From contig JBBTWE010000001.1 in assembly GCA_038062955.1 (NCBI GenBank), forward strand, positions 101,411-165,410: a DNA stretch of 64,000 nucleotides. The letters run 5' to 3'. The notes beneath the pieces are model-generated. The model did no database searches, had not been told where the DNA came from, and worked only from the letters and a program-made list of their open reading frames with translations. The DNA comes from Patescibacteria group bacterium. Its GTDB lineage: Bacteria; Patescibacteriota; Minisyncoccia; Phycocordibacterales; BOKC01. Numbering within the stretch: position 1 is the stretch's first letter; each line of letters opens with the position of its first letter. Of this stretch, positions 2,913-61,989 are shown piece by piece. The position numbers were made by a program, and so were the translations under genes.

Positions 2913-4091
2913 TTAAGGCCAAAATTGTTTAAAAAATATCCTTATTTTTCCAGTGGTTTTTTTTACAAAATACTTTAAATATGGCTCTTGGTCTTGAGCC
3001 CCTAAACCTAATAAGCAAAGTCCATAAACTGCTGACCAAGAAGAATCCTTGATTACATTATTTTTTGTATTTTCATTGGAGATCGTTCCAATTTTTGCCG
3101 GAAGTTTTAAGAATGTTTTGGCAAAATTTTCAATATCAACGATGCCGCTTCCTCCGCCAGTAAAGATAATTCCGGCTGGCAGTATGCCGTTCCTCCCAAT
3201 TTTTTTCAGATGAGATTCTATGGTATCGAATATGTCTTCGAGTCTGGCTTCAATAATTTCTTCAACTTTTTTTCTTGGATAAGTCGCAATGGTTAATGCG
3301 CCAAGTTTTACGTGTTCAGCTTCGTCTAAGGAAATTTTAAGTCCCAAAGCAATATCGTTTGTTATGTTGTTTGAACCAGTAGGGAAGACTTCGACGGAAA
3401 TTGGAATATTGTTTTCGTAAATCACAGTAGAGAGAGTTTCTCCGCCTATATTGATTAGAATACAACCCGCTCTTTTTTGTTGTTTGGAAAGCAAAATCAA
3501 ACTTGAAGCTATCGGATTTGCCACAGCGTCTATGACGTCAACACCTAATTCTTCCAATACTTTCATCAAATCATTCAAATGTTTTTCTAAAACAGTCACG
3601 AAAAGACACTTCATTTCAAGCTTACTCCCTTTCATACCTATAGGACTTCCGATAACAGTTTTGCCATCCAATTTATAAGAGATTGGAATTGTGTGTAAGA
3701 TTTCTCTGTTTAAAGAAGCAGAGCTAGGTATATTGTTTTGGCACTCCGTGATTAATTTTTCTAAATCTATCTCACCCACTTCAAGATCGGCGCGAGATAT
3801 TATGACTTCTGCAGAGGAAGAAACACTGCCTAACCCCGTGCTACCGACAGAGAGCATGACTTCTTTTATTTTTGAGCCTATACTTTTTTCTGCCGCTCGG
3901 AGCGCTTTTCCTACACATTTTGAAACGGCCTCTTTTTCTGTTATGCAACCATGTCGAAGACCTCTGGATTCAGAGAGCCCAAAACCGATCATCTTTGGTA
4001 CAGGACGTTCACCTTCAATCAAGGATTCAGCAACGCCTACTCGAATAAATTGAGTACCAATATCGATGCTAGCAACAAAATTCCTGCTCAT
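2913..4091 (-). CDS. ftsA: cell division protein FtsA (actin-like ATPase)
   Basis: N-terminal IDIGT actin-fold motif, 392 aa, immediately upstream of ftsZ on the same strand. Confidence 0.9.
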   Translation of the reverse strand: MSRNFVASIDIGTQFIRVGVAESLIEGERPVPKMIGFGLSESRGLRHGCITEKEAVSKCVGKALRAAEKSIGSKIKEVMLSVGSTGLGSVSSSAEVIISRADLEVGEIDLEKLITECQNNIPSSASLNREILHTIPISYKLDGKTVIGSPIGMKGSKLEMKCLFVTVLEKHLNDLMKVLEELGVDVIDAVANPIASSLILLSKQQKRAGCILINIGGETLSTVIYENNIPISVEVFPTGSNNITNDIALGLKISLDEAEHVKLGALTIATYPRKKVEEIIEARLEDIFDTIESHLKKIGRNGILPAGIIFTGGGSGIVDIENFAKTFLKLPAKIGTISNENTKNNVIKDSSWSAVYGLCLLGLGAQDQEPYLKYFVKKTTGKIRIFFKQFWP

Positions 4092-4978: not shown

Positions 4979-4997
4979 ATCTGCCTGCCGGCAGGGA
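4979..4997. repeat. R1 palindrome, truncated copy (CTGCCTGCCGGCAGGGA)
   Basis: Direct read; intergenic between hisS-like and rpsU. Confidence 0.6.
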
Positions 4998-5092
4998 TTC
5001 ATGATTTCATGGCTTCGCCAGATCCTGAGCAGCATGGACAAGAATAATTTTTTTTAATCTTGATTCCTGAATCTTGAATCATGCTTCTACTC

Positions 5093-6313: not shown

Positions 6314-6377
6314 ATGTTCTTTTTAAAAACGCGCATATTCGCGAGCTCACGGATGGCTGATTTCTGTACCACAGAAA

Positions 6378-6492
6378 TCATGTCGGAAGATTTTTTATCA
6401 CGAAGTTAATTTTTGCCCTTCAAAAATTACGCCTCATGTTTTGTTTTGTGTGAGCAAAATAAAAATGAGGTGCTATATAAAATTTCTGACTC
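6378..6492 (+). repeat. 115-bp repeat element (family R2), inverted partner of 401..516
   Basis: See 401..516; the ORF-track entry 6413..6697 overlaps it and is judged spurious. Confidence 0.85.
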
Positions 6493-6495
6493 GAC

Positions 6496-7943: not shown

Positions 7944-7964
7944 CTGCCTGCCGGCAGGCAAGGA
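7944..7964. repeat. R1 palindrome copy (CCTGCCTGCCGGCAGGCAAGG)
   Basis: Direct read; lies between convergent pth and rpsA. Confidence 0.8.
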
Positions 7965-7984
7965 GGCAAGATTCAAGATAAAAA

Positions 7985-15494: not shown

Positions 15495-15899
15495 ATGTAT
15501 TTATTACATAAAGAACACTATAAAATTATCACTGGCTTTTTTTTGTTGGCCATAATTTTTCTTTTACCACAATTATTATTCGCTCAAAGTCCAAGGGACA
15601 CTGGTTTATTGCCAGATTGCGGAGCAAATTGTGATTTCAACCATTTAATGGAACTGGCGAATAATATAATGCGTTTTATCATTATGGTTTCTATTCCGCT
15701 TACTGCCATCATTTTTTCTTATGCAGGCTTCCTTTATATAACGGCCGCTGGAAATGAGAGCCAAATCCATCATGCTCATGATATTTTTATAAAAGTTGCA
15801 ATCGGTTTCTTTTTTATTTTAGCCGCATGGCTTATTGTTTATCTCATTACCTCGACTTTGTTGGATCCAACATACACAACTATTTTGCAGAGTCGTTAA
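15495..15899 (+). CDS. VirB2/TrbC-pilin-like small membrane protein, paralog 1
   Basis: Signal peptide ending FAQSPRD, then two hydrophobic helices around a short loop; 134 aa. Confidence 0.5.
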   Translation: MYLLHKEHYKIITGFFLLAIIFLLPQLLFAQSPRDTGLLPDCGANCDFNHLMELANNIMRFIIMVSIPLTAIIFSYAGFLYITAAGNESQIHHAHDIFIKVAIGFFFILAAWLIVYLITSTLLDPTYTTILQSR

Positions 15900-15920
15900 A
15901 ATTTTAATCAAGACAAAAAA

Positions 15921-16334
15921 ATGATTACTTTCAAAAAAATTAAATCCTTTCCTTTCCTTTTTTCTTTTCTGATGTTGAGTTTTTTAATAATTATTCCGTT
16001 TGTGACCGTTTCTGCTCAAAGTCCAAGAGATCCTTGTCCTCCGGGAATAATTTGCTCTCCTTATCCACAGGATTTTACAATCGTATCTTTTCTAAACTTC
16101 ATCTTGGAAAATATTGTCTTACCAATTGGAGGTGTAATCGCTGTATTATTTTTGGTCTACGCTGGATTCCTTTTTGTGACTGCAAGGGGTAATGAAGAAC
16201 AACTCGAGCATGCCAAATCTACTTTAAAGTGGACAATTATAGGAATCGCTATTCTTTTTGGGTCTCTAGTAATTTCAAATGGCATAAAGGATACTATTTG
16301 CCAAATTGCAAATATTCCTAGTTTTTGTAGATGA
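15921..16334 (+). CDS. VirB2/TrbC-pilin-like small membrane protein, paralog 2
   Basis: Signal peptide ending SAQSPRD (same motif as paralog 1), two helices; 137 aa. Confidence 0.5.
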   Translation: MITFKKIKSFPFLFSFLMLSFLIIIPFVTVSAQSPRDPCPPGIICSPYPQDFTIVSFLNFILENIVLPIGGVIAVLFLVYAGFLFVTARGNEEQLEHAKSTLKWTIIGIAILFGSLVISNGIKDTICQIANIPSFCR

Positions 16335-16354
16335 TAATGGCTTTAAAATAACAA

Positions 16355-16750
16355 ATGACCAAAACAAAAAAAATAATCAGTTTGGTGTTTAAAATGAAAG
16401 GTCTTCTAGCACACGCCATGGTTTTTATATTTCCTCTTTTTGCGATGGCCCAACTTTCTCCTGGAACTCCCAGATCCCCATCAGATTTTGGAGATTTTAT
16501 AAGCATGATTTTGGGATTCATTTCCTATTTGATTCCCCTTCTTATAGCTATCGGACTCTTGGTATTTCTTTGGGGAATGGCTAAATTTATTTTACACGCC
16601 GAAGAAGACGAAAAAAGGGAAGAGGGTCGGCAGTTAATGATGTGGGGGGCAATTGGTCTTTTTGTCATGGTTTCTTTTTGGGGTCTAACGAAGATTCTGC
16701 TCGGAACTTTTGGCTTTGAATTCAGGTTTCCTAGATTGCGAACAAGTTAA
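16355..16750 (+). CDS. VirB2/TrbC-pilin-like small membrane protein, paralog 3
   Basis: Signal peptide ...AMAQLSPGTPRSPSD; core FLWGMAKFILHAEEDEKREEGRQLMMWGAIGLFVMV. Confidence 0.55.
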   Translation: MTKTKKIISLVFKMKGLLAHAMVFIFPLFAMAQLSPGTPRSPSDFGDFISMILGFISYLIPLLIAIGLLVFLWGMAKFILHAEEDEKREEGRQLMMWGAIGLFVMVSFWGLTKILLGTFGFEFRFPRLRTS

Positions 16751-16754
16751 AATA

Positions 16755-17108
16755 ATGAAAAACTTTCTAAAAGCAACCCAATACTTTATTTTTTCCATGC
16801 TGTTTTTCCCTATGCTGGTTGGAGCGCAGTCAGGCGGAATTACCAGTTTACAACGTCTACTTCAAGTTGGAATGAGTTACATTTCTGTTCTTACAAGAAT
16901 AGTTGTGATTTTTGGTATCATATTTTTCTTTTGGGGTATGGCTTTATTTATTCTGCACGCTGAAGAAGAAGATAAAGAAGAAGATAAAAAAAAGATGCTC
17001 TGGAGCATCATTGCGATAACTGTAATGTTTGCTATCTGGGGCATTATAAAATTTTTTCAAATAGCTTTTTTCGGTAGCATATTCCCAGGTGCTCCGTCAG
17101 GCCTTTAA
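16755..17108 (+). CDS. VirB2/TrbC-pilin-like small membrane protein, paralog 4
   Basis: Start trimmed to MKNFLK; core FFWGMALFILHAEEEDKEEDKKKMLWSIIAITVMF. Confidence 0.55.
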   Translation: MKNFLKATQYFIFSMLFFPMLVGAQSGGITSLQRLLQVGMSYISVLTRIVVIFGIIFFFWGMALFILHAEEEDKEEDKKKMLWSIIAITVMFAIWGIIKFFQIAFFGSIFPGAPSGL

Positions 17109-17125
17109 TTAAATAAAAAAATATT

Positions 17126-17446
17126 ATGAATGGTCCTTTACCTGATGTTGGTTATGTATCACTACTTAATTTTGAGGAATTTCTTGGAAATTTAGTTCCA
17201 GTAATTTTTGTTTTGGCCTTTGTCTTTTTTTTGTGGGGATTAGCTAAATTTATCCTTCATTCAGGAGAAGAAGAAGCAAAAGAAGAAGGAAAGAGAATTA
17301 TGTTTTGGGGTATCGTAGGCCTAGTCATTATGTTTGGAATTTGGGGGATAGTATATTTTTTACTTGATGTATTGTTTGGATCCGGCCCCTTCCAAGGTTC
17401 TAATCAAACTATTGAGATTCCTAATTTTCCCACACGAGTACCTTAA
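17126..17446 (+). CDS. VirB2/TrbC-pilin-like small membrane protein, paralog 5 (no signal peptide)
   Basis: Core FFLWGLAKFILHSGEEEAKEEGKRIMFWGIVGLVIMF, but the N-terminus is a short hydrophilic stretch followed directly by helix 1 rather than a signal peptide. Confidence 0.55.
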   Translation: MNGPLPDVGYVSLLNFEEFLGNLVPVIFVLAFVFFLWGLAKFILHSGEEEAKEEGKRIMFWGIVGLVIMFGIWGIVYFLLDVLFGSGPFQGSNQTIEIPNFPTRVP

Positions 17447-17615
17447 AAATTAAAAACCAGTGACTTGTAACAAGTAACTTGTGACTGATTGGTTGGTTTC
17501 TTTATGCACAGGAGAAACATTGATTATTTAACGTTTACGTAGTATCATTTTGATTATTAAATATAAGGTCGCATTATAAGTTTATAAAGCATTATTATTA
17601 AAAAATAACTAAATT

Positions 17616-17978
17616 ATGAGTAAAAGATTTGTATTTTTATCAAGCGCGCTAGCTTTGGTTGCCACATCGCCATTTTTTGCTTCGGCCCAATTAAATTTTG
17701 GAACATTAACAACCACTCTAGACCGTTTCAAGGATGTTCTTGGCACACTAACAACAGTTATCATAGCTTTGGCTTTGATATTCTTTTTCTGGGGTCTTGC
17801 AAAATTTATTCTTGCTGCTGGTGAAGAAGAAGCAAAAGAAGAAGGAAAGAGAATTATGTTTTGGGGTATTCTTGCTTTCGTTATAATGATCGGTATTTGG
17901 GGAATTGTTAATTTCCTTATAGGCGCCTTCGGTATAACAGGTACTACAGCTCCTAATCTCCCTCAAGTTCCAAGATAA
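17616..17978 (+). CDS. VirB2/TrbC-pilin-like small membrane protein, paralog 6
   Basis: Signal peptide ...FFASAQLNFG; core FFFWGLAKFILAAGEEEAKEEGKRIMFWGILAFVIM. A 45-nt stretch is identical to paralog 5 DNA. Confidence 0.55.
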   Translation: MSKRFVFLSSALALVATSPFFASAQLNFGTLTTTLDRFKDVLGTLTTVIIALALIFFFWGLAKFILAAGEEEAKEEGKRIMFWGILAFVIMIGIWGIVNFLIGAFGITGTTAPNLPQVPR

Positions 17979-17999
17979 TATAATTTACGATAAATCTAA

Positions 18000-18260
18000 G
18001 TGTTGCCAATAATCTACAAGATAAACGAGTTTATAGTGAACCCTATTATCTATCTTATGATAGGGGTGTCTGTGGTCGTTTTTCTGTGGGGGATTGTTGA
18101 GTTTATCGCCAAGTTCGATAGTGAAGAAGTTAAAGAACGTGGTAAAAGAAATATGTTTTGGGGTCTTATCGGAATGTTTATAATGTTTGGAGTTTTCGGA
18201 ATCATCAGGCTAATTTTAGGAACATTTGCTATCACTCCGATCGAACTCCTGACCCAATAG
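18000..18260 (+). CDS. VirB2/TrbC-pilin-like small membrane protein, paralog 7 (short, no signal peptide)
   Basis: Core VFLWGIVEFIAKFDSEEVKERGKRNMFWGLIGMFIMF; 86 aa. Confidence 0.5.
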   Translation: MLPIIYKINEFIVNPIIYLMIGVSVVVFLWGIVEFIAKFDSEEVKERGKRNMFWGLIGMFIMFGVFGIIRLILGTFAITPIELLTQ

Positions 18261-18285
18261 AACTAAAAAATTGAAATTAAAATTA

Positions 18286-18316
18286 AAAACCACCACGTCA
18301 GACGTGGTGGTTTTTA
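18286..18316 (+). terminator. rho-independent terminator of the pilin-like array
   Basis: AAAAACCACCACGTC-AGA-CGTGGTGGTTTTT hairpin plus T-run. Confidence 0.8.
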
Positions 18317-18335
18317 ATTTGTTGGGTAAATAAAA

Positions 18336-18401
18336 CCCCGTAGTGAATTTTGGCATAGCAACTTCGTTGCGGGAGCAATAATGTCAAAATCTACTACGGG
18401 G
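18336..18401. repeat. R4 short hairpin element (CCCCGTAGTGAATTTTGGCAT...ATGTCAAAATCTACTACGGGG)
   Basis: Direct read; left boundary of the GC-rich islet. Confidence 0.75.
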
Positions 18402-18439
18402 TAAAAAAAGCGGCAGAGAATTGAATCCTCCGCCGCTCG

Positions 18440-19582
18440 CTACCTCTCCACAAAGAACTTCACTGGTACCTTGAGCTTTTCACCCTTCTTTACGAAGAAA
18501 CACCATCCTTCGTACTCGTCTGGTGGACCAGTTGGTGTTAGGAGCCATTCTCCTTTTTCAGTGGGGAATTGAAGGCAGTAAGTTCCTTTTTTGGTGTACT
18601 TACTCCAACGGAACTCTCCACACTTTCCGATTCTCTCGTCCCAGATGTCGAATTGAGCTGGTAGCCCGAACTCATCGATGACGACGTTTCTGGCTTCGAG
18701 GATGTGTTCCTCTGGCCACCCCGTCTTCTCTATGAGGTTCGGCTCTCTTCCAGCCTCCATCATGAGTGTACCTCTCGGAAGCTCTACTTTGGCTACCACC
18801 ACTGTCGCACTTGCAACAGGAGTCGGGTTAGAAGCTCTCCATTCCTTGTACAGCAGTGTTTGTTGGACTTGTGTGAAGAGTCCTAATCCAACAACCGCTG
18901 CGAGAACGGTGGCTACCCACTTTCCCCATTTTTTGCCATGGAAAGCGATGGCGAACCAAAGAACAAAGAGGAGTCCTAGAGTGAAACCCCAAAAAATCTT
19001 TGGCTTACCTCGTATGTTATCCCATGCCTCCGGAAGGAGGAACATCATCGGTACATACACGACGGTAAAGATGAGGAGGGCGGTGATCCACAGATACCTA
19101 ATCTCCGGGATCCACAAGAATCCCCAGATTGGTGCACCACGTATCCCGTTCCACATTCTGGAATACAACGGTTTTTTGTTCGTTGTTGTCGGAGTATTTC
19201 CTTCAGGTTTATCTTCTGCGTGTCCCAGATCTTCTTCTTGTACTCTTGATCTGAACATCTCATAGAGACGAGTGAGGCCGAATACTACCGCCGCCAAACC
19301 CAGAAGCATCATGAACTCGTTATTGCTCGTGGATACTGTCGTGGGTGTGTGGTTTAAGAACTCAAGGCCAAACAACACCAAACTCATAGCGCCCACAACG
19401 CACAATGGGATCCAAATAGCCCAAGATTGGTGCGTCCAGATCACTTTGCGAAGTCTGGGAGCATTCTCTCCCAGATATTTCCAAGACTTTTTTCTCCAGC
19501 TAGGAACAGCAAGACACAGGATAACAGTGAGGACAAAAACGCCCCCCACAATCCACAACAGTGTTACGATGAAATTGAGCAT
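18440..19582 (-). CDS. polytopic membrane protein (about 7 TM) with C-terminal soluble Cys/Trp-rich domain; GC-rich
   Basis: 380 aa; hydrophobic segments through residue 260, then roughly 120-aa hydrophilic tail. Codon usage and GC (about 50%) unlike neighbours. Confidence 0.5.
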   Translation of the reverse strand: MLNFIVTLLWIVGGVFVLTVILCLAVPSWRKKSWKYLGENAPRLRKVIWTHQSWAIWIPLCVVGAMSLVLFGLEFLNHTPTTVSTSNNEFMMLLGLAAVVFGLTRLYEMFRSRVQEEDLGHAEDKPEGNTPTTTNKKPLYSRMWNGIRGAPIWGFLWIPEIRYLWITALLIFTVVYVPMMFLLPEAWDNIRGKPKIFWGFTLGLLFVLWFAIAFHGKKWGKWVATVLAAVVGLGLFTQVQQTLLYKEWRASNPTPVASATVVVAKVELPRGTLMMEAGREPNLIEKTGWPEEHILEARNVVIDEFGLPAQFDIWDERIGKCGEFRWSKYTKKGTYCLQFPTEKGEWLLTPTGPPDEYEGWCFFVKKGEKLKVPVKFFVER

Positions 19583-19744
19583 TAGTAGACTCCTTTCGTA
19601 AAGGGTTAAGTGGTTTGCTGGTATAAATCAAAGAACATTGCCAGCTACATATATATCATGGTTTATTTTATAAGTCAAATAATAAAAAGACCCCATTGAG
19701 TTTTCACTCGTTGGGGTCCTGCGCGTGAGAAAATCAGTTCGATT

Positions 19745-21112
19745 TCACTCCTTGTGGTCTTCACCGTCTTCTTCTTTCTGAGGTTTCTTTTCAGGAGAAG
19801 ACGACCTCTTTGGCTCGACTCCCGAGGGCGGGGAAGAAAGCCGAGGTGGATGCACTGGTGAAGTTTTGCCAGCTAGTATGGTGCCCATGACAGCAGTGGT
19901 TAGATCTCCACCGGTCATAAACACCTGGGCAGCTGGGTTGACGGTTTTTTGGAGGGTGTCCATTTGTATTGATAACTCCCCCCCTGGGCTACTGACTGCC
20001 TTTGCCATTTTCTGAAGACCAGCGGCTCGACCAGTAAGGAAAGCTTTCTCTTTTGCGCCGAGCCCTTCTCCTTGAAGTTTGAGATTCTTCCTATTGAAGC
20101 TCGCCTCCCTTAATGCAGCCATAGCCACATTGACTGTTCTTGAGATCCCGTGCCTGTCAACGTAACCGGCATTAAAGTTGATACCCCAAGGGTCATCTTT
20201 CTTTCCGGTTTCAGGATTCTTCTCTTCTCCGATAAGGATCTCTACTCTCCTGTGAATCAATGCGTTTACTTGGGGGATTCGACAGAGAAGCATGAGTGGC
20301 GTCAGCTTAGCAAATTCCGCTTGCGCTGCAGCCACGATCGTGGCTGCAATATCGCGTACGGCTTCTGCTATGGTGCCGCCAGTCTGCACGAACCTCATCG
20401 GACTCCAAATAGTGAATCGGCCGATGAACTCGGGCTCAATTGTCAGCTGATCGTGAAGGGGATTATCCGTTCCCTTCAGGCGTCCAACTAAGTTATCGTA
20501 CGTCTTTTTGTCTTCGGCTGCCATTTTCTCCCAAGCCTCTTGCTCTTCAGTCGTCTGATCGGGCTTGAAATCTGGCTTTGGTGGCAGAGTGTAGACCATA
20601 GTGTTACGGTCGGCAGTTATGATGCGAACCACAACCACATCGTCTTCTCCCTTGTCATCCTTGCTCGTGTAGATCTTTCTGAGCAATTCGTGTTTCGGTA
20701 TTGCAAACTGGATCCTTTTTGTTGGAAACCGTTTGATACTACAGAGAAGCCATGGTACAAACACAGGGCCGGATGATAAGTCTCGAATTGGTTTACCGAG
20801 AAGGAGCAGGGCTGCCTGCTCGTCTGGTCCAATTATTCGCATACTCTTGATGGCAAAAAATACCATTATCAGTGTGACAAAAGAGAATGAGTCTACACTG
20901 AGGCCAGCAAAGTTCTTCAGACCAATCCATAGCCCCACCGTAGCGATAAACAGGATCGCAAAATACGGTACGGGCATGACATAATAGGCAATGCTAGCCC
21001 CCTTCTTATTTCTTGCCCACCAATTGAGTCTAGACTCCTTTTCGTTTGCTTCGTTGTTTGCGGCTGTGTTGTTGGTGTCTGGATCCAGGGGAGGTGTCGT
21101 ATTCGAGGTCAT
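19745..21112 (-). CDS. SPFH/band-7 (stomatin/HflKC/flotillin-like) domain membrane protein; GC-rich
   Basis: N-terminal TM, then SMRIIGPDEQAALLLLGKPIRDLSSGPVFVPWLL...RIQF (SPFH core), later WGINFNAGYVDRHGISRTVNVAMA and AEKEAFLTGRAAG coiled region; 455 aa. Confidence 0.6.
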   Translation of the reverse strand: MTSNTTPPLDPDTNNTAANNEANEKESRLNWWARNKKGASIAYYVMPVPYFAILFIATVGLWIGLKNFAGLSVDSFSFVTLIMVFFAIKSMRIIGPDEQAALLLLGKPIRDLSSGPVFVPWLLCSIKRFPTKRIQFAIPKHELLRKIYTSKDDKGEDDVVVVRIITADRNTMVYTLPPKPDFKPDQTTEEQEAWEKMAAEDKKTYDNLVGRLKGTDNPLHDQLTIEPEFIGRFTIWSPMRFVQTGGTIAEAVRDIAATIVAAAQAEFAKLTPLMLLCRIPQVNALIHRRVEILIGEEKNPETGKKDDPWGINFNAGYVDRHGISRTVNVAMAALREASFNRKNLKLQGEGLGAKEKAFLTGRAAGLQKMAKAVSSPGGELSIQMDTLQKTVNPAAQVFMTGGDLTTAVMGTILAGKTSPVHPPRLSSPPSGVEPKRSSSPEKKPQKEEDGEDHKE

Positions 21113-21230
21113 TTGAGAGTCTCCTTGTTTTGTATTTCGAACTGATTTTCACGTCAAAGAGCATTGTTTCCTACAACGAGTAGGGAACGGTTCTAGTTGC
21201 TACTATATATTCTTTCTATAAAAAAGTCAA

Positions 21231-21297
21231 CCCCGTAGTAGATTTTGGCATAGCAACCTCGGTTGCGAATAAAATAATGCCAAAATTCACTACGGGG
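21231..21297. repeat. R4 short hairpin element (CCCCGTAGTAGATTTTGGCAT...ATGCCAAAATTCACTACGGGG)
   Basis: Direct read; right boundary of the GC-rich islet. Confidence 0.75.
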
Positions 21298-21423
21298 TCA
21301 ACCTGCGTAATGCATCATGACCTTCGCAACACTCCATCGTAATATTTCAATTTTTATGGATCTTAATAGACCTTGACTCAAATGTATTAAAGCATAGAGT
21401 AATTGAAGAGAAATTTTTAATTT

Positions 21424-21495
21424 GGCCTAGTGGCGAAGGGGTAACGCGGCTCTCTGCAAAAGAGTTATGCGCCGGTTCGAGTCCGGCCTAGGCCT
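21424..21495 (+). tRNA. tRNA-Cys (GCA)
   Basis: Acceptor GGCCTAG/CTAGGCC, anticodon loop CTGCAAA, T-loop TTCGAGT, discriminator U; no encoded CCA. Confidence 0.85.
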
Positions 21496-21550
21496 CAATA
21501 TTCATTTCACAAATCACTTAATTTCTTGTATCCTAAAAAGCTAAGAGTTT

Positions 21551-21632
21551 GCCCGGGTGGCGTAATTGGTAGCCGCACTTGACTTAAGATCAAGCGCCGT
21601 AAGGCTTGCGAGTTCGAGTCTCGCCCCGGGCA
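21551..21632 (+). tRNA. tRNA-Leu (TAA)
   Basis: Acceptor GCCCGGG/CCCGGGC, anticodon stem CTTGA/TCAAG, loop CTTAAGA, long variable arm, discriminator A. Confidence 0.85.
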
Positions 21633-21662
21633 CAAGTCATTTTATATAAAAATAAATAATAT

Positions 21663-21735
21663 CCGCCTGTAGCTCAGTTGGTAGAGCAGATCCCTCTTAA
21701 GGATAAGGTCGAAGGTTCGAATCCTTCCAGGCGGA
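21663..21735 (+). tRNA. tRNA-Lys (CTT)
   Basis: Acceptor CCGCCTG/CAGGCGG, D-arm GCTCAGTTGGTAGAGC, anticodon loop CTCTTAA, T-loop TTCGAAT. Confidence 0.85.
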
Positions 21736-21847
21736 CAAGAAAGCGTTATATGCTTTCGGGAAGGATTCGAAGCCCGATTGAGCTTATTTTATGATCCTGA
21801 TTTTATCGAAGGAGAAATAAAATAACCAATCGGGGTACTGAAACTGT

Positions 21848-21866
21848 AAGTTTCGAATCCTTCCAG
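21848..21866 (+). repeat. partial duplicate of tRNA-Lys 3' end (TTCGAATCCTTCCAGGCGGA)
   Basis: 19-20 nt identical to 21717..21736, located 110 bp downstream. Confidence 0.7.
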
Positions 21867-21907
21867 GCGGACCCGCAATTGAGAGATCGCGGAGCCATTC
21901 TAAATTT

Positions 21908-21991
21908 GCTGGGATGGTGAAATTGGTAGACACACCAGCCTTAGGAGCTGGTGCCTTAATCGGCATGGAGGTTCGAGTCCTCTTCCCAGCA
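21908..21991 (+). tRNA. tRNA-Leu (TAG)
   Basis: Acceptor GCTGGGA/TCCCAGC, anticodon stem CCAGC/GCTGG, loop CTTAGGA, long variable arm, discriminator A. Confidence 0.85.
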
Positions 21992-22149
21992 CAACAAAAG
22001 AAAAGCCGGCTTCAAGTCGGTATTTTCTTTTGTTGTAATCTGGATAAAAGACGAGAAGGCCGGATCGAAGTAGCTATATGAGCGAAGCGAAAAGCTACGA
22101 GTGAGGCGGGGTCGAGCAAAATTTTTTTTAAAAAATTTATGTGTGACCG

Positions 22150-22168
22150 AGTCCTCTTCCCAGCACAA
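22150..22168 (+). repeat. duplicate of tRNA-Leu(TAG) 3' end (GAGTCCTCTTCCCAGCACA) followed by perfect hairpin
   Basis: 19 nt identical to 21976..21994; then ATAATAAAAATCCTGCA-CAAA-CTGCAGGATTTTTATTAT hairpin. Confidence 0.7.
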
Positions 22169-22245
22169 TAATAAAAATCCTGCACAAACTGCAGGATTTT
22201 TATTATTGTGCTGGAAGAAGGTAAGCTTCTTTACTTTATTTTTCT

Positions 22246-24910: not shown

Positions 24911-25020
24911 TTTTCAGATTCGGATGCAGATCAAGGCGCAAGCGAGAACCGTACCGAGACGTATTTAATAATACGTTGAGGGAGGCTCGGAGTGAAGCAA
25001 CGCAGAGATGCGCCGAATAT
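24911..25020 (+). repeat. structured repeat / candidate ncRNA family R3, copy A
   Basis: TGCAGATCAAGGCGCAAG...ACCGAGACGTATT-TAAT-AATACGTTGAGGGAGGCTCGGAGTGAAGCAACGCAGAGATGCGCCGAATATGG; GAGA tetraloop hairpin CGCA-GAGA-TGCG. Confidence 0.55.
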
Positions 25021-25887: not shown

Positions 25888-25957
25888 GTTGATTTTTGCC
25901 CTTCAAAAATCACGTCGTAAGATTTTCTACAATGTAATTGTGGAAAATTTACGACGC
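25888..25957 (+). repeat. R2-related element (ATTTTTGCCCTTCAAAAATCACG plus 45-nt hairpin CGTCGTAAGATTTTCTACAA...TTGTGGAAAATTTACGACG)
   Basis: Shares core with 401..516 / 6378..6492; near-identical copy at 41083..41147 with compensatory loop change. Confidence 0.7.
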
Positions 25958-25991
25958 GGGTGTCGCTAAATATAAAAGTTCGAACACTTCA

Positions 25992-29538: not shown

Positions 29539-29621
29539 GCGTCGGTCGTATAGTGGCAATTACACCACGCTGTAAACGTGGCGCCCTCTGGGCTACGGGG
29601 GTTCGAGTCCCTCCCGACGCA
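29539..29621 (+). tRNA. tRNA-Tyr (GTA)
   Basis: Acceptor GCGTCGG/CCGACGC, anticodon stem CCACG/CGTGG, loop CTGTAAA, long variable arm, T-loop TTCGAGT. Confidence 0.85.
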
Positions 29622-29745
29622 CAGCATAATTTTCGATCTTATTTTTCCTTGATGACTGTTATATTACGTGCTAAATTCATACTCGGATTCGAGCTTCAAG
29701 CTCATTGTGTTCATTTTACAACTAACCTGTCTAAGGAGCAGAACA

Positions 29746-30312
29746 ATGCAAGAAGTTCAACCTGGTTTGTTTGCGGTCGAAGGGGAGATGCCGTGTAATC
29801 CGGAAGCTATTCACACCAAACCTTACTCGCTAGTCTCGACCGAAGGTACGCCGAGACATGGTGAAGAAATAGCAGTGCGTATTCTCACTTTTTCTCAAAG
29901 GCTTGGCCGATGGGTTGGGGTGAGCTGGATCTGTTTGCGCGACATGGCAATCGAAGACCACAAGACGGCGTTTCGTATTAGAGAAGCCGAAACGCGATAT
30001 GGGAGAGCTGTCCGTCGGCACGACTTTCTGTGCGGGGTTACTCGCGGTTTCTTCTCTCGACTTGTGAAGAGCCCGAGGATTCGCAAGAAAGATTTTTTCC
30101 CGGAAAAGTTGCCTGCCACTGGAATCTTCCAATTCCCTCATTGCATCGATGCTGGCCTCGGTGAGCTTACAAGAGGGGAGATGTTGGTCGTGAAAAGGGG
30201 TGAAAAATCCATGAGGCAGGACATATTTTTTCCGACTCCCGCTCTTGTTTCGTTCATTCTAGAGAGGCAGAAGAAAGCTTCGACTGAAGACACGAGAGTC
30301 ATGACGAGGTAG
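29746..30312 (+). CDS. hypothetical protein, GC-rich islet downstream of tRNA-Tyr
   Basis: 189 aa from MQEVQPG; GC about 52%. Antisense ORFs in the same tract judged spurious. Hairpin plus T-run terminator at about 30308-30350. Confidence 0.4.
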   Translation: MQEVQPGLFAVEGEMPCNPEAIHTKPYSLVSTEGTPRHGEEIAVRILTFSQRLGRWVGVSWICLRDMAIEDHKTAFRIREAETRYGRAVRRHDFLCGVTRGFFSRLVKSPRIRKKDFFPEKLPATGIFQFPHCIDAGLGELTRGEMLVVKRGEKSMRQDIFFPTPALVSFILERQKKASTEDTRVMTR

Positions 30313-32596: not shown

Positions 32597-35050
32597 TTGA
32601 ATTATATGGAGTTGATAAGGAATTTCGATAAAATAAGCAAAAATGACGCTGGAATTGCTGGTGGAAAAGGGGCGTCTCTTGGAGAAATGAGCCAAGCTGG
32701 GCTTCCTGTGCCACCTGGTTTTGTAATTCTCTCGGGATGTTTTGAACAGTTTCTCAAAGAAACTGATCTCTATCAGGAAATTGATTCTATTCTCCATAAG
32801 GTTAATCATAAAGAAATTCATACTGTCGAAGGAGCTTCTGAACAGATTCGAGAGCTTATTTTGAACGCAGAAATGCCAAAGGATATTTCCGTTGATATTC
32901 AAAAGAAATTTAAGAAACTTGATGCAAAATATGTAGCAGTGCGCTCGAGCGCAACAGCGGAGGACGGCAAGGATCATGCTTGGGCGGGACAACTCGAATC
33001 ATATTTGAATACGAGAGAAGCCGAGGTACTGGCAAAAGTAAAACTTTGTTGGTCTTCACTTTTTACCCCTCGGGCAATTTTCTACCGTTTCGAAAAAGGC
33101 TTACACTCAACAAAAATATCGGTGGCAGTTGTCATCCAAAAAATGGTGGAATCAGAATTTTCTGGCATTGCTTTCTCGGTCCATCCTGTTACTGAAGACT
33201 ATAATCAACTTATCATTGAAGCTGGTTTTGGTTTGGGAGAAGCGATTGTATCGGGCTCTGTTACACCAGACTCATATGTGGTAGAAAAGGAACCAAGAAA
33301 TATTTTGGATATAAACGTTTCAACTCAAGATCGTGCATTGTATCGATCAGAGAAATCTTTGGCCGAGCATGGTAATAATGAATGGAGAGATATTTCAGAA
33401 CCTCAAGCTTCATCTCAAGTTCTGACAACAGAACAGATTCTTGAACTTTCAGAAATTATTCTCAAAATCGAAAATCATTACGGTTTTCCGTGTGACATTG
33501 AATGGGCTTTTGAGAAAGGGAAGTTTTATATAACCCAAAGCAGACCGATTACGACACTTTCAAGTAATAAATCTTTAAAGAAAAAAATTCTTGCTGAAAA
33601 ATTCATTGAAGAGATTGGTAATCAAGAGCTTCGTCCACCTATCTACAATTCTTCTATGTTGGTGCATCAAAGTGGGTGGAATACATCTAAATATTTTGGA
33701 AAATACTATAAGTCACAAATTCCTTCTCCACTCTTTTTTCACACCAAAGGAAGTAGTGGGGTATTATATGCATCAACGGGGAAGGAGAAAGATCTTGTAA
33801 GTGAAGTTTTTCGCGAGTATTGGAAAAACGAGTCATATATTCATAATCGGTACGACATATTTAAAGATTTAACCAAAAAAATTGATGATATTTTTTTCAA
33901 GAAACTTACCTATAGCAATCTTTCGCGTTTAGCTGAAAAGCAGATCAATTCAATTGTTACCGAACTCGATGAAGTTACATGGAGCATGAATGCTGTGGCG
34001 TTCTATTCGATTTACTTTGATAAAAAAATTTGTGAGGAACTCGTGCAAGAGTTAGGTATTGGTATTTCCCAAGAACGTCTAGATTTTATCTGGGAAAAGG
34101 CTATTGTGGCGCCCGGTATTTCTTTTGAAAAACGAAGAAATCTTTATCTTTTGGAACTTATAGATCAGGGTAAGTCTTGGTCTGAGATAGGTGAATTATG
34201 CCAGTATTTTGATACCGGATATGACAAAATATTTTCTCCCACAGTTATCGAGGAAAAACTTCGCGAAAAATATTCTAGCTATACACCACAGAAAGCTTCT
34301 TCTGAAATTAATCTTGAAGATTTACAGACCGAGAAGAGATTAAAAGAAAACAAGAAATGGCTAGATTCGCTTTCAGATTCTGAGCGACGAATCGCACACT
34401 TCACACAATTTATAATTGAGTTACGTGATGAGCGAAAAGATTTCATTATGAAGGCAGTAACAGGATTCTATAAGATTGCGGAGCGTCTTTTTAAGGATGC
34501 TGGTATTCAAGAAGAATTCATGGTGTTTACAAGTATTCAAGAGCTCAAGAATGGTACGCAATATCTTAAGAAACATAAGGAAGAAATAATTTCTCGAGCC
34601 GAGAAAGGCGTTGTGTTGCTCGTACATTATAATAATGAACAGGAGTTGGAATATGGAACAGTCGAAGAAAATGAAAAATGTGTAAACGAATTTTTTCGCT
34701 CCCAGCAAGTTCACGATTTGAAATCCAACGAACTTCAAGGGCAGAGGGGATCATTTGGTACTGTCAAAGGCATTGCTCGAATTATTAAAGATTTATACGT
34801 AGATCGGGGAAGACTAAACCCTGGAGAAATACTTGTTACTGGTATGACACGGCCAGAATTTGTCCCTCTCATGAAAATTGCGGGTGGTATTGTTACAGAT
34901 GAAGGAGGTATTACATGCCATGCTGCTATAGTTTCTCGTGAACTTGGCATTCCTTGTGTGATTGGAACAAAAATTGCTACCCAAGTCTTGAAGGACGGAG
35001 ATATGGTGGAGATGGATGCCGATAATGGAATTGTAAAAATAATTAAATAA
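32597..35050 (+). CDS. PEP-utilising enzyme family protein: N-terminal PPDK_N ATP-grasp plus central domain plus C-terminal His-swivel mobile domain (PEP synthase / rifampin-phosphotransferase-like architecture, no TIM-barrel domain)
   Basis: [28 protein letters not shown] (PPDK_N); C-terminal [21 protein letters not shown] phospho-His swivel; 817 aa. Confidence 0.75.
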
Positions 35051-35058
35051 ATCTAAAC

Positions 35059-36381
35059 ATGTTAAAACCATCAGAATATACAAAAACAGTAAGAAGACCG
35101 TACCCACCACTACTTAGATCATTGATTTTGGCCGGGACTTCTAATCATAAACACCACAAACATTTTATGGAGGAAGTCTTTGTTTTTGAAGATTTTATTT
35201 CGGTTGATCATATCCTGTATTATGCTAAATCGACCCTTGAACGAAAGGCTAAAAACGTTCCATTTTATTGGATGAAGCCCGGAGTTTTAGAAAGAGTAAA
35301 AAATGAATTAGAGAAAAGAGAGAAAAAACTTATATCCGCTACTTCTCTAGAATTTAATGATTTTGCCAATGCTTATGAGGCCTATGTACCTGCCCTTGTA
35401 CTTATATTCTGTTGTGACGCGCCAGTAGCAAATGAGGTTCGAAAAAGATTATCAAAGAAAATTTCCGCAGAAGAGACAGAACACTTAATGAACGCTTTGA
35501 ATATTCCGCTACAAGATAATTACTATAAAAAAATTGACCACGATCTTTTAATGGCTGAAGATATTGATTCACACGTCAAAGAATATGAATGGATTAAATC
35601 TAGATATGGAGAAAAACATCCCTATACTAAAGAAGAAGCGTTGAAGAAATTAGAGGCATTAGACAAAGCTAGTTTCCTTGCTAAGTGGAATCATGAAAAA
35701 TCAGAATTAAAAGAGGTTATAAAAAAAGCAAAAGAAATTCTTGGCGGTGAAGATGCTGACATAATTGATTTTATGCAGTTTATAATTTTTTACCGCACTC
35801 AAAGAACTGATGTCTTAAACAGAGCTTCTTATCTTTTTATTCCAAAATTTGAAAAAATGGCGAAAGAGAGGGGCTTAAGTTATGTTGAATTATTACATTG
35901 CACTAAGGATGAAGTTGTTAATGATAATTTACCTTCACGAGAAGTTCTTAAGGAACGTATAAATGATTTCGTGATGTTGTTAGACAATGGAGTCGTTAGA
36001 TGTCTCTCGGGAGTTGCGACAGAGAAAATTAAGAAAATGTTTGCAGTTGAGACTTCTGAAATAAAAGAATTTAAGGGTGTTATTGCGTGTAAAGGTCAAG
36101 CGAAAGGAGTTGTAAGGGTTGTTCGAAACAGAAATGATTTTTCCAAAGTTCTTCCGGGTGATATTCTAGTTGCCAGCATGACTACACCAGACATGGTTCC
36201 GATAATGAATATTGCTTCTAGTTTTGTTACTGACGAAGGTGGTATTACTTGCCATGCGGCAATTGTATCCCGCGAACTCAAAAAACCTTGTATTATTGGT
36301 ACCAAAATCGCGACTCAGGTTTTAAAAGATGGGGACCTGGTGGAAGTAGATGCGAATAATGGAATTGTGAGAAAAATATAA
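35059..36381 (+). CDS. N-terminally truncated PEP-utilising enzyme paralog (central domain plus His-swivel, no ATP-grasp)
   Basis: C-terminal [44 protein letters not shown] nearly identical to upstream gene. [14 protein letters not shown] aligns with [14 protein letters not shown] of the 817-aa protein; 440 aa. Confidence 0.65.
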
Positions 36382-36388
36382 AAAAAAG

Positions 36389-36441
36389 AAGCCTTAGCCC
36401 ACTGTGTAGGGGCTAAGGCTTCGTGCCGGTGACTTCACCGG
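36389..36441. terminator. tandem hairpins between convergent genes
   Basis: AAGCCTTAGCCC-ACTGTGTA-GGGGCTAAGGCTT, then CCGGTGA-CT-TCACCGG. Confidence 0.6.
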
Positions 36442-37019
36442 ATAGAGGTGACCAAGAGGCGTCCGCGACGGATCATGTTGATCTGGAAACCTTCGCATTC
36501 ACCGATATTGGCTTCGAGAAAGATGCGCTTCTCCACTTCATCGGCGCCTTCTGTGAATGCAAGGCAGGAAGCGGGGAGAAGTACCGCATGTCCGACAACC
36601 AGCATTCTGGTTGGCGCATCGGATTCGATCAGTTCATCGATCCTCTCGGCCGCAATGCAAGCCAATGTTGCAATTGGCCCGCTCACCCCCGGGCCTTCTC
36701 TGTAGTAGGCATCGAGAGTGGCATAGCCAAGCTTCTTGAAGGCCGCATCCAACGCTTGTGCTCCCGGAAAGGCGGCATCGTAGAAGAGCCCGTCTACTTC
36801 CACTGTGGGTTCTTCTGCGGCGAGCCCCGCGACAATACGAGCGGTCTCCTCCGTCCGAGCAAGACCAGAATGGCAGATCAGATCGAACTGTGGATTGCCG
36901 AGTTGTTCTCGCCGCGCCATCGCTTGAGCTCGACCAGTGTCCGACAGAACGTGGGTCCTGTGGTCACCAGCCGTCTTCACCGTGTTCCCGTGACGCAGAA
37001 AAGTGATTCGAAGGCTCAT
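36435..37019 (-). CDS. histidine phosphatase superfamily protein (PGAM/SixA-like), GC-rich
   Basis: LRHGNT catalytic RHG motif, SGLARTEETA, VVGHAVLL second His; GC about 58% versus 35% surroundings; antisense + ORF 36423..37064 rejected. Confidence 0.75.
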   Translation of the reverse strand: MSLRITFLRHGNTVKTAGDHRTHVLSDTGRAQAMARREQLGNPQFDLICHSGLARTEETARIVAGLAAEEPTVEVDGLFYDAAFPGAQALDAAFKKLGYATLDAYYREGPGVSGPIATLACIAAERIDELIESDAPTRMLVVGHAVLLPASCLAFTEGADEVEKRIFLEANIGECEGFQINMIRRGRLLVTSIR

Positions 37020-37164: not shown

Positions 37165-38114
37165 GGTATGACAAAATCTTTCACCAACTTTTCTATCTTT
37201 TTTAATTCTGAAGGCTCAAACCAATTTATTCTTTTATCTCTCTTAAACCAGGTTCTCTGTCTTTTTACGAAATGCCATATTTCTATTTGAAGACTACTTA
37301 CCATTTCTTTTTCTGTAATTTCTCCTTTCAAATATTTAGCTAAAAATTTATATTCGAGTCCCAACTCAATCATTCGTTTAAAAGACAATCCTTGTTCATG
37401 TAGAGTTCTGGCTTCTTCAATCATTCCGATTTTTATCCTCTCCATTAAACGAGTTCCAATTTTTTGTTTGAGAATTTCATCAGGCAAATCAAGTCCGATA
37501 AATAGGGGACTATACTTGAGAGAATCCTTTTTTAACACTGGGACACTTCCAATTTCTTTTGCTATTTCGATTGCTCTTATGAGGCGTCTCGGGTTTTGTC
37601 TCTCGATCGAATCAGCTCTTTTCGGATCTAATTTTTTTAGAATTTCAAAAAGCTCGGCGGGAGTTTTCTTGTCCAATTTCTTTCGCAGACTAATATTGGG
37701 GGAGACTTCAGGTAAAACTAAATTATCAACCAAGGCTTGAATATAAAATCCAGTACCTCCACAAATAATTGGAAGCTGACCTCTCTTTAAAATGTCCTCA
37801 ATTGCTTTTTCTGCTTTTTCCTTAAAATCTGTAACACTAAATTTTCGTTTCGGATTTGCAATATCTAAAAGATGGTGGGGAACACCCATCATCTCTTTTT
37901 CCGTGATTTTCCCTGAACCAATATCAAGACCTTTATACACTTGTCTCGAATCAGCCGAGATTATTTCTCCGTTAAATTTTTTGGCAATTTGCACAGCCAA
38001 ACTACTCTTTCCGGTTGCGGTCGGACCTAGTATCACTATTATTTTAGGTTTTAATTCATTATTCATTTTATAAAAAAAAGCTCCTGAAGTCGTAAAACTG
38101 TTAGGAGCTCTCAT
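37155..38114 (-). CDS. miaA: tRNA dimethylallyltransferase
   Basis: P-loop GPTATGKS, SADSRQVYKGLDIGSGK; 319 aa. Confidence 0.9.
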   Translation of the reverse strand: MRAPNSFTTSGAFFYKMNNELKPKIIVILGPTATGKSSLAVQIAKKFNGEIISADSRQVYKGLDIGSGKITEKEMMGVPHHLLDIANPKRKFSVTDFKEKAEKAIEDILKRGQLPIICGGTGFYIQALVDNLVLPEVSPNISLRKKLDKKTPAELFEILKKLDPKRADSIERQNPRRLIRAIEIAKEIGSVPVLKKDSLKYSPLFIGLDLPDEILKQKIGTRLMERIKIGMIEEARTLHEQGLSFKRMIELGLEYKFLAKYLKGEITEKEMVSSLQIEIWHFVKRQRTWFKRDKRINWFEPSELKKIEKLVKDFVIPKK

Positions 38115-38445
38115 GGATTGTAGGTCTTGGCACTCTACCTCTCAAGTTTTGCAACATCAGATTCTTCATTATCTGCCTTTTTTTCAGTTTGTAATGAAAA
38201 AACTGAAAAATGATAATCGAACCAAGACCGATTCCTGGCACTGCAGACCATAACAATACGTTGTTTTGGTGGATCCATCCGTATACACCCATAGACACAA
38301 GAGAACATGCTCCAAGAAAGTAGAGGAGTGGATGAATCGCTTCTGTGCTCTTTGGATCGCGATAATTCTTCCACACTTGCGCTGAGAACCCGACAAGATA
38401 GAGAAGAATGGTTGAAACAACGACAAACACTTCTGAAGTATCCAT
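38101..38445 (-). CDS. hypothetical small membrane protein (3-4 TM)
   Basis: 114-aa hydrophobic ORF at the edge of the GC-rich tract. Confidence 0.35.
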   Translation of the reverse strand: MDTSEVFVVVSTILLYLVGFSAQVWKNYRDPKSTEAIHPLLYFLGACSLVSMGVYGWIHQNNVLLWSAVPGIGLGSIIIFQFFHYKLKKRQIMKNLMLQNLRGRVPRPTIHESS

Positions 38446-39832: not shown

Positions 39833-39919
39833 TGGTGCCGCTGGTCGGACTCGAACCGACACGGGGTTTCCCCCTCAACATTTTGAGTGTTGCGTGTATA
39901 CCAATTTCACCACAGCGGC
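39833..39919 (-). tRNA. tRNA-Leu (CAA) with encoded CCA
   Basis: Reverse complement: acceptor GCCGCTG/CAGCGGC, anticodon stem CAACA/TGTTG, loop CTCAAAA, variable arm AGGGGGAAACCCCGT, T-loop TTCGAGT, then ACCA. Confidence 0.85.
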
Positions 39920-41043: not shown

Positions 41044-41082
41044 AACTTCCAAATTCAGCGCATCCCATCGTTGCTCGCGCCT

Positions 41083-41147
41083 GATTTTTGCCATTCAAAA
41101 ATCATGTCGTAAGATTTTCTACAACATAGTTGTGGAAAATTTACGAC
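41083..41147 (+). repeat. R2-related element (copy of 25888..25957)
   Basis: GATTTTTGCCATTCAAAAATCATGTCGTAAGATTTTCTACAACATAGTTGTGGAAAATTTACGAC. Confidence 0.7.
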
Positions 41148-61867: not shown

Positions 61868-61989
61868 GCTTATATAATATCAAATTAACAGTCATTCGCA
61901 CAATATATGTAAAACGAATGAGTTGTGGAAAAACAACAATCTCAACTCAAAAAATAATTTGGTTCTCTGAGATCTTTTCCCTTGCCTGC

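Follow-up and report, generated by a model that had tools for sequence, protein, structure and literature searches.

A GC-rich gene pair encoding a putative stomatin-like protein and an orphan membrane partner in Patescibacteria: a probably resident, hypervariable locus flanked by mobile palindromic elements

How do two adjoining genes of about 50% GC come to lie in an AT-rich bacterial genome, exactly flanked by two copies of a hairpin and close to a tRNA cluster in which tRNA 3' ends recur? The question is raised by a 64-kb stretch of DNA (the window) from a metagenome-assembled genome of the Patescibacteria, or Candidate Phyla Radiation (CPR). The two genes, termed A and B here, have NCBI entries as hypothetical proteins (AAB534_00605 and AAB534_00600); the hairpins are termed R4 elements. 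An earlier interpretation, made without database searches (the sequence-only reading), took the pair for a two-gene cargo that had been inserted at the tRNA genes and was bounded by the hairpins and the tRNA repeats. Comparison with related contigs does not bear this out. On balance, the pair is probably a resident, operon-like combination of an SPFH scaffold protein and an orphan partner, which together form a replacement-type hypervariable locus of the cell envelope.

The site is spanned by five related contigs from different metagenomes (sources L001/L004, L002/L003, L116 and L117). In all five the pair occupies the same locus, and no empty site, that is a relative lacking the pair, was found among them. 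Window and relatives share a common gene order of solute-binding protein, six or seven pilin paralogues, B, A and tRNAs. The same-strand adjacency of A and B is kept in L001, L002 and L116, and also in the distant locus L005, where genes for a membrane protein and a pilin come after an A-like gene (24% identity to A). Conservation extends to the regulatory sequences: the stretch containing the promoter and 5' untranslated region (UTR) of gene A (21143-21230) is 82-87% identical in relatives, the A-B spacer is similarly conserved, and the gene B terminator is near-identical in all alleles (L001, L002, L116 and L117). Occurrence of the pair at the same spot, between conserved linkers, indicates that it is resident and not freshly inserted. 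Siblings carrying the two genes with native composition had been named beforehand as evidence that would tell against an import. The genes are indeed present in the siblings, but with the same non-native composition as in the window, and the outcome of this test is thus divided.

The compositional anomaly itself is real, although the background GC had been put at 35%, whereas that of the window is 38.6%. Gene A has a GC content of 0.494 and a third-position GC (GC3) of 0.511, gene B of 0.485 and 0.533; relative to 51 other open reading frames (ORFs) of the window (mean GC3 0.310, sd 0.046, maximum 0.401), these GC3 values correspond to z-scores of 4.3 and 4.8. The A and B alleles of close relatives have a GC of 0.47-0.51 and a GC3 of 0.48-0.57 inside AT-rich surroundings, and the pair in L005, likewise in AT-rich surroundings, reaches 0.55-0.56 and 0.57-0.66. 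In every allele the third positions are nearly flat, with A3, C3, G3 and T3 each at about 0.25, compared with 0.30-0.39 for A3/T3 and 0.14-0.17 for C3/G3 in native genes. The GC-rich, flat third-position composition is therefore common to all alleles of the family and not a mark of recent import. Rapid evolution alone does not account for it, since the pilin paralogues also evolve fast (some are 52-65% identical) yet retain a native GC3 of 0.22-0.36. GC-biased gene conversion was considered as a source of the high GC and judged unlikely, because the conserved linkers inside the locus, where crossovers could occur, are AT-rich (GC 0.31-0.36).

An islet of recent foreign origin, integrated at the tRNA cluster with the R4 hairpins as its boundaries and the tRNA 3' ends as scars of attachment (att) sites, would agree with these z-scores, with the exact flanking by hairpins and with the nearby tRNA repeats; other GC-rich ORFs of the window also adjoin tRNAs. 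It is at odds with most of what was found, however. The promoter, spacer and terminator are conserved in the five related contigs. The hairpins are absent in relatives, have separate target-site duplications and share no outer duplication, and the tRNA repeats bracket only 111 and 155 bp that lie beyond tRNA-Cys and tRNA-Leu(taa), not the genes. An integrase or recombinase was not found either: of the ORFs of at least 50 aa in 18336-22170, A and B alone are credible coding genes, the others overlapping A or B in other frames or overlapping tRNA genes. A search of 1.84 billion representative proteins yielded no donor clade for B. Recent integration of a foreign islet is, on these grounds, hardly tenable.

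Further GC-rich ORFs, with a GC3 of 0.43-0.59, are found in the window at 29746-30312 (+), 36435-37019 (-), 38101-38445 and 38590-39399 (-), and 51048-51338 (+). One, which has no Pfam match, adjoins tRNA-Tyr (29539-29622), another encodes a histidine phosphatase and another is 96 aa long; ORFs for a SWEET/PQ-loop-like and a MaoC-like protein are located near tRNA-Leu(caa) (39833-39919).

The second characteristic of the pair is its divergence. Between the window and its relatives, protein identity is 96% for GyrA, 93% for a methyltransferase, 83% for the solute-binding protein and 88-92% for the last pilin (pilin-7), and the flanking genes are 78-85% identical at the DNA level. In the same comparison, protein A is 38-45% identical, the membrane part of protein B 23-46% and its C-terminal domain 39-79%; for A and B as a whole, protein identity is 23-54%. 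Only about 300 nt of each gene can be aligned by blastn, at 66% identity, and DNA homology breaks off and resumes at the promoter, the A-B spacer and the 3' end of B. The similarities are moreover incongruent: the flanks and gene A of the window are nearest to L001, while its gene B is nearest to L002 (79% versus 53% in the C-terminal domain). In L117 two B-like genes stand in tandem (L117:1-228 and 229-1098), each with the common terminator hairpin, which shows duplication or cassette-like behaviour of gene B. Incongruent alleles, tandem B genes and conserved linkers fit an exchange by homologous recombination.

Alternatively, the alleles may have diverged rapidly in place, with a locus-specific mutational process or strong diversifying selection flattening the third positions; a single cause would then lie behind both the divergence and the GC3 of about 0.5, and no replacement would be needed. 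The flat third positions of every allele would be expected in this case, as would limits of divergence that match the coding regions next to AT-rich linkers that stay 80-87% identical, and the family is confined to the clade; as the fast-evolving pilins are not GC-rich, a factor specific to this locus would have to be invoked. No mutator element (reverse transcriptase, template repeat or silent cassettes) was seen in the window, however, and a tblastn search of the window for silent copies or paralogous fragments of A or B was negative. Two near-identical loci from different samples, L001 and L004, differ by 1 single-nucleotide polymorphism (SNP) in 8 kb, and the incongruent allele similarity suggests exchange. 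In addition, any gene that stems from a 50% GC background would show a GC of about 50%. On the whole, divergence in place appears unlikely.

Protein A is probably a divergent stomatin-like SPFH protein, as the sequence-only reading had proposed, although the assignment comes from homologues and a profile search and not from a Pfam hit of the window protein. Its orthologue P0002 (the L001 allele, 39-45% identical) scores 26.8 bits for Band_7 (PF01145), above the cut-off of 23.6, and aligns to positions 2-175 of the 176 in the profile. Allele P0003 scores 20.9 bits, and the L002 and P0007 alleles fall below the threshold; in all, three of the four members of the A family match Band_7. A profile of four A alleles searched against the Protein Data Bank (PDB) gave nine hits, all of them stomatins (E 0.0017-0.66), and the alignment covers the membrane anchor of A, an 'EYERA..RLG'-like start of the SPFH domain and a 'WGI...v.i.d' domain end. 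The protein shows the SPFH architecture of N-terminal anchor, SPFH domain and helical region. Hydropathy reveals two N-terminal hydrophobic segments (residues 45-63 and 70-91), and the C-terminal part is Ala/Gly-rich and helical, with long helices predicted at 320-391 by AlphaFold2 (AF2) at low confidence.

Protein B belongs to an orphan family. Its hydropathy profile displays five clear hydrophobic helices and one or two weaker ones, so the description as a membrane protein stands, and the count of seven transmembrane segments is approximate. The C-terminal domain, of about 120 aa, is conserved, Trp- and Cys-rich, ends in KFFVER and is predicted to be all-beta; the positive-inside pattern predicts that it faces outward. 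No match to B was found in Pfam, NCBIfam, PADLOC, PHROG or the sequences of the PDB, in keeping with its earlier description as an unrecognised partner. An exhaustive HMMER search of the 1.84 billion proteins showed that the family has five members, all from this sibling group, and a metagenome scan with B recovered just two already known contigs. Relatives of A and of B number two or three each among 5.8 billion proteins, and a word-indexed profile search for A relatives gained one protein. The AF2 model of B is marginal, with a mean pLDDT of 52, though the C-terminal domain, modelled as eight antiparallel strands, reaches 60-71. Foldseek comparison of the model with the PDB and BFVD gave weak beta-barrel matches, the best in the PDB being lipocalins (E 3e-3, TM-score 0.3-0.45), and the domain thus offers merely a hint of a meander barrel. 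When B was aligned by hhalign with the membrane partner from L005, no relationship was apparent.

Same-strand pairs of an SPFH gene and a membrane-protein gene are familiar from stomatin-NfeD operons, for example PH1511/PH1510 of P. horikoshii, floT/yuaF of B. subtilis and qmcA/ybbJ of E. coli. As in these, the neighbour of the SPFH gene encodes a membrane protein in which N-terminal helices are combined with a small beta domain at the C-terminus. The NfeD domain (PF01957) was not detected in B, however, with no Pfam or NCBIfam match at E values up to 1 and no PDB relative. B is thus not recognisably an NfeD protein, although a very remote relationship would be possible at a model confidence of just 60-71. 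The modelled fold is, at low confidence, an eight-strand meander rather than a five-strand OB fold, and the family is an orphan one of five; A differs from the stomatins of NfeD operons in that its SPFH domain contains an insertion and that it has two hydrophobic segments, and the pair is hypervariable and compositionally deviant. As the defining feature of NfeD was not found, the pair is not classed with the stomatin-NfeD operons, but it may work in a similar way, as a scaffold plus membrane client. The cages of HflK/HflC and FtsH provide a second parallel, with an SPFH oligomer that encloses or regulates a membrane client, as is presumed here. In contrast to that system there is one SPFH gene, B is neither an SPFH paralogue nor a protease, and there is no adjacent FtsH-like gene.

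In the model that we favour, A would oligomerise on the membrane and corral or regulate B, by analogy with stomatin-NfeD and HflK/C-FtsH, and the pair would act in the cell envelope beside the array of VirB2-like pilins. The position and the regulatory linkers (the promoter, the A-B spacer, and the C-terminus of B plus terminator) would stay fixed, while divergent alleles of the coding bodies would most likely be swapped by homologous recombination via those linkers. Allele diversity would be maintained by selection at the cell surface, through interaction with phage or host.

The replacement flexible genomic islands of aquatic bacteria, which encode exposed structures and are exchanged by homologous recombination (PMC4033161), provide a precedent. 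The present locus resembles them in its fixed position, conserved flanks, highly divergent genes of the same kind, atypical composition and nearby tRNAs, and its products, like theirs, are presumed to be exposed envelope proteins. It differs in consisting of two genes and 2.8 kb as opposed to multi-gene glycosylation clusters, in a GC that is higher and not lower than that of the genome, in its conserved internal linkers, and in that recombination is here an inference. The pair is a new variant both of the theme of SPFH protein plus partner and of replacement-type variable loci.

Several points weigh against this reading. Recombination is deduced from incongruent similarity among four to five alleles, and limits of divergence at start and stop codons would equally fit diversifying selection in situ. 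The single SNP between L001 and L004 is no direct sign of ongoing turnover and makes for an uninformative check. Replacement does not account for the GC-rich composition of the pair, and a GC3 of about 0.5 remains a puzzle. Protein A of the window has no Pfam hit at E values up to 1 and no significant NCBIfam match, and the AF2 structure of A, predicted from a four-sequence alignment, is unusable (pLDDT 37). With this structure unusable and the model of B marginal, the idea of scaffold and client rests on family analogy. The pair is linked to the pilins by adjacency alone, in two lineages.

Two other roles have been considered. The pair might be a two-gene membrane module for anti-phage defence, abortive infection or exclusion, its variability and composition resulting from turnover of a defence island. 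A hypervariable membrane module of two genes, in a plastic locus by tRNAs with HNH and small mobile insertions in relatives, would suit such a role. Six family members had no match in PADLOC or PHROGs, however, and neither family has a relative in 2.9 million viral contigs. The site is fixed in all relatives and does not alternate between presence and absence, and the literature on SPFH proteins together with anti-phage defence yielded nothing relevant; a defence module is thus regarded as improbable. Bolder still, and given only a slight chance, is the idea that the pair is subject to a mechanism specific to the locus, either targeted diversification that randomises the coding sequence, which would account for the flat third positions and for the extreme divergence between genomes that are otherwise 80-85% identical, or tuning to another translational context, for example as cargo expressed in, or exchanged with, the host of the episymbiont via the adjacent type IV secretion/pilin system. 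If true, the locus would represent a novel type of variable module of the envelope or the host interface in Patescibacteria.

If the pair is resident, what are the hairpins that flank it so precisely? They are two independent insertions of a palindromic element that is found across the Patescibacteria and resembles a miniature inverted-repeat transposable element (MITE). Their independence follows from the empty sites that L001 and L002 have for both copies, E1 and E2, and from the target-site duplication that each copy has of its own; they do not, as had been supposed, bound an islet. E1 is a clean insertion into the T-tract behind the gene B terminator. The duplication at E2, read on the minus strand, is TTGA, the first four bases of the -35 box of gene A, and the promoter was left intact. 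Both copies flank the operon probably because its intergenic edges are permissive. The outer duplication and arm of E2 form a second promoter-like site (21301-21274, minus strand), consisting of TTGACC, 16 nt, and CATTAT with a TG extension, which reads into the hairpin toward gene A.

The two copies and the genes between them might also be viewed as a composite transposon, either a past or a potential unit, and the outer arms of E1 and E2 are indeed perfect 22-bp inverted repeats, with the inner arms matching at 21 of 22 positions. The outer flanks have no duplication in common (TAAAA versus TCAA), from which it follows that the pair did not arrive here by transposition of a composite unit, and the genes are at their ancestral locus. 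A transposase-bearing parent, that is a pair of arms enclosing an ORF, was not found in 113 loci of fetched DNA. Elsewhere R4 copies lie at GC steps in 14% of cases compared with 9% of random positions, a slight excess. A composite transposon can accordingly be given next to no credence.

Beyond this locus, R4 is a recurrent element. The arm pattern occurs four times in the window, making up the two complete hairpins, where none would be expected (100 shuffles). A scan of the GTDB species representatives identified at least 108 stretches, nearly all in Patescibacteria and spread over many classes. In the fetched DNA, 75 complete copies, 62-93 bp long, were collected in 69 patescibacterial loci; several genomes have 4-9 copies each among the loci examined (L008-L113), of which L032:2801-2867, L049:2576-2637, and L102:2798-2865 and 3022-3089 are examples. 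The arms, of 21-22 bp, are near-invariant and have a fixed two-base asymmetry, GA in one and AG in the other, which leads to a tandem G.T/A.C mismatch in the stem. Within the interior, of 22-53 nt, there are usually two unrelated mini-hairpins, so that the fold is T-shaped; of 74 loops, 43 form a double hairpin and 55 have a fold z-score below -2. The interior is found in both orientations relative to the arms, as in the two L102 copies. In 50 of the 75 copies the arms are abutted by an exact direct repeat of 4-7 bp, in most cases TCAA/TTGA or T...A; in a control with displaced flanks this holds for none of 75.

Bacterial MITEs and palindromic repeats include the Correia, RUP, ERIC and REPIN elements. 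R4 is like them in being short and non-coding, with terminal inverted repeats, target-site duplications and dispersed intergenic copies, and also in its empty sites in relatives and its insertions beside promoters and terminators. It is unlike them in the near-invariance of its arms across distant classes of Patescibacteria, the asymmetry of GA versus AG, and the T-shaped interior of two mini-hairpins that occurs in both orientations; a parent transposase was not found in the fetched DNA. R4 is not present as a hairpin in viral contigs, where three hits proved to be chance coding matches, and a search of the literature found nothing for the arm sequence or for MITEs in Saccharibacteria. An integron attC site was rejected as an explanation, the arm ends (CCCCGTAG...CTACGGGG) being flanked by TCAA or TAAAA, with neither RYYYAAC/GTTRRRY core sites nor an integrase in this part of the window. 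An analogy with Xer/dif modules was likewise dismissed for lack of core sites and recombinases.

The tRNA cluster poses a separate problem. That tRNA 3' ends recur downstream of their genes was correctly noted: the 3' end of tRNA-Lys is repeated at 21848-21872 (24 of 25 bases, 21 of them exact from 21852) and that of tRNA-Leu(tag) at 22148-22167 (20 exact bases), and according to ARAGORN and Rfam neither copy is part of a further tRNA gene. The segments bracketed are just 21737-21847 and 21994-22147, and they are separated from genes A and B by the intact tRNA-Cys and tRNA-Leu(taa) genes. Each copy had been described as followed by a perfect hairpin. Hairpins are indeed close by, but the Lys copy is itself the 3' strand of a long imperfect hairpin, the 5' strand of which is an antisense copy (21759-21771), and the Leu copy lies within a 32-bp stem.

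Integrative elements that target tRNA 3' ends duplicate these ends as att sites. The window repeats resemble such elements in that T-arm and acceptor 3' strand are directly repeated downstream of an intact tRNA gene, a repeat that is absent from a relative. They differ in that only 111-155 bp lie between the repeats, that no integrase is present, and that the Lys segment has a recurrent structured core. An integration footprint is hence a reasonable description of these small segments, though not of the A/B pair, and the repeats look like separate small remnants of tRNA-targeted insertions.

The Lys repeat belongs to a recurrent structured module. In sequence order, this comprises an antisense T-arm (21759-21771), then a long hairpin, the GUACUG motif, a small hairpin whose loop reads UGUAA, and the displaced tRNA-Lys 3' end. 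In L002 the genes for tRNA-Lys and tRNA-Leu(tag) are 40 nt apart, with no module between them, as opposed to 171 nt in the window, with repeat and module. Homologues of the module exist in L002 and in an unrelated patescibacterial genome, L091, and eight strong instances were detected with a covariance model in fetched CPR DNA amounting to about 700 kb (Table 1). Double changes occur in 24 of 35 pairs of the alignment, which was fitted to the model; 94% of cells are paired, compared with 72% for shuffles and 31-56% after sliding of the partners. Three instances, at tRNA-Lys of the window, tRNA-Ile of L091 and tRNA-Ser of L095, share the order of tRNA, terminator hairpin, antisense T-arm, conserved core and displaced tRNA 3' end. 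The displaced copy in L095 has an encoded CCA, whereas the live tRNA gene lacks it. In other genomes the module is sometimes located away from any tRNA. Neither the module nor the R4 hairpin matched a family in Rfam 15, at gathering thresholds or at E values up to 10.

The tRNA array is plastic in the relatives too. In L001 (172-663) and L004 (213-704) a gene for a 163-aa HNH endonuclease (GC 0.34) lies between tRNA-Cys and tRNA-Leu(taa), where the window has a 54-nt spacer (21497-21550). In L002 the block of tRNA-Lys and tRNA-Leu(tag) has the opposite orientation with respect to gene A, the contig lacks tRNA-Cys and tRNA-Leu(taa), and a 101-aa ORF of GC 0.60 and GC3 0.82, with no Pfam match, stands between a Lys-type module and tRNA-Lys (L002:351-656 and 838-1034).

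Table 1. Positions of the gene pair, its regulatory sequences, the R4 copies and neighbouring features; positions are those of the window unless a locus is named.
Feature	Position	Strand	Basis and remarks
Seven VirB2-like type IV secretion system (T4SS) pilin paralogues	15495-18260	+	PF18895 hits for all seven ORFs; left neighbour, context only
Perfect 20-bp hairpin terminator after the pilin array	18280-18320		Inverted repeat; conserved in relatives
R4 copy E1	18336-18401	+	Target-site duplication TAAAA at 18331-18335 and 18402-18406
Gene B intrinsic terminator	18408-18438	-	GAGCGGCGGAGGATTCAATTCTCTGCCGCTT followed by a T run
Gene B, 380 aa	18440-19582	-	ORF; polytopic membrane protein, orphan family
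A-B intergenic linker	19583-19744	-	GC 0.36; 80-81% identical between relatives, unlike the flanking coding regions
Gene A, 455 aa	19745-21112	-	ORF; probable divergent stomatin-like SPFH/Band-7 protein
Gene A 5' UTR and promoter	21113-21230	-	-35 TTGACT at 21230-21225, -10 TATAGT at 21207-21202
R4 copy E2, arms inverted relative to E1	21231-21297	-	Duplication TCAA at 21227-21230 and 21298-21301
tRNA-Cys(gca)	21424-21496	+	ARAGORN and Rfam
tRNA-Leu(taa)	21551-21633	+	ARAGORN and Rfam
tRNA-Lys(ctt)	21663-21736	+	ARAGORN and Rfam
tRNA-Lys-linked structured module	21746-21880	+	Fold z -7.0 versus shuffles
Module instances	window 21746-21880; L002:85-205; L091:2525-2646; L095:5708-5809; L085:6166-6290; L038:1038-1142; L104:6196-6302; L103:2978-3074		Covariance model
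tRNA-Leu(tag)	21908-21992	+	ARAGORN and Rfam
Leu(tag) 3'-end copy in 32-bp hairpin	22148-22221	+	Stem 22153-22221; terminator between tRNA cluster and rbfA; fold z -10.1

The pilin array to the left of the pair is also present in L001, L002 and L004. An earlier study reports VirB2-like pilin arrays from 383 assemblies of Patescibacteria and describes them as essential to one epibiont in culture (PMC12102498).

The locus bears on several wider matters. As it differs radically between genomes that are otherwise alike, it is a candidate for determining specificity towards host or phage, and could serve as a strain-typing marker. Little is known of the envelope proteins by which Patescibacteria attach to the cells on which they live. 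For the detection of genomic islands it serves as a caution, as atypical GC, flanking repeats and proximity to tRNAs all suggested an insertion, whereas the relatives show a resident locus. The persistence of a GC3 of about 0.5 in a fast-evolving pair restricted to one clade, in a genome with a GC3 of 0.31, is a small but real puzzle of compositional evolution. The T-shaped palindromic element and the structured module at tRNA 3' ends are by-products that may be of use to annotators of these genomes.

Other repeats were encountered in the window. A GC-rich intergenic repeat of about 99 nt occurs three times (511-609, 24919-25017 and 48947-49045), and a repeat of about 95-137 nt that contains GATTTTTGCCCTTCAAAAATC is found in both orientations (402-538 / 6357-6493, 25888-25984 and 41080-41176), with related sequence at the start of contig L002. 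The short palindrome TGCCTGCCGGCAGGCA is present four times (361-382, 4982-5003, 7945-7966 and 61983-62004). Finally, a direct repeat of 232 nt with 71% identity (34820-35051 and 36154-36385) coincides with the 3' ends of the adjacent genes at 32606-35050 and 35059-36381, which appear to share a C-terminal domain.

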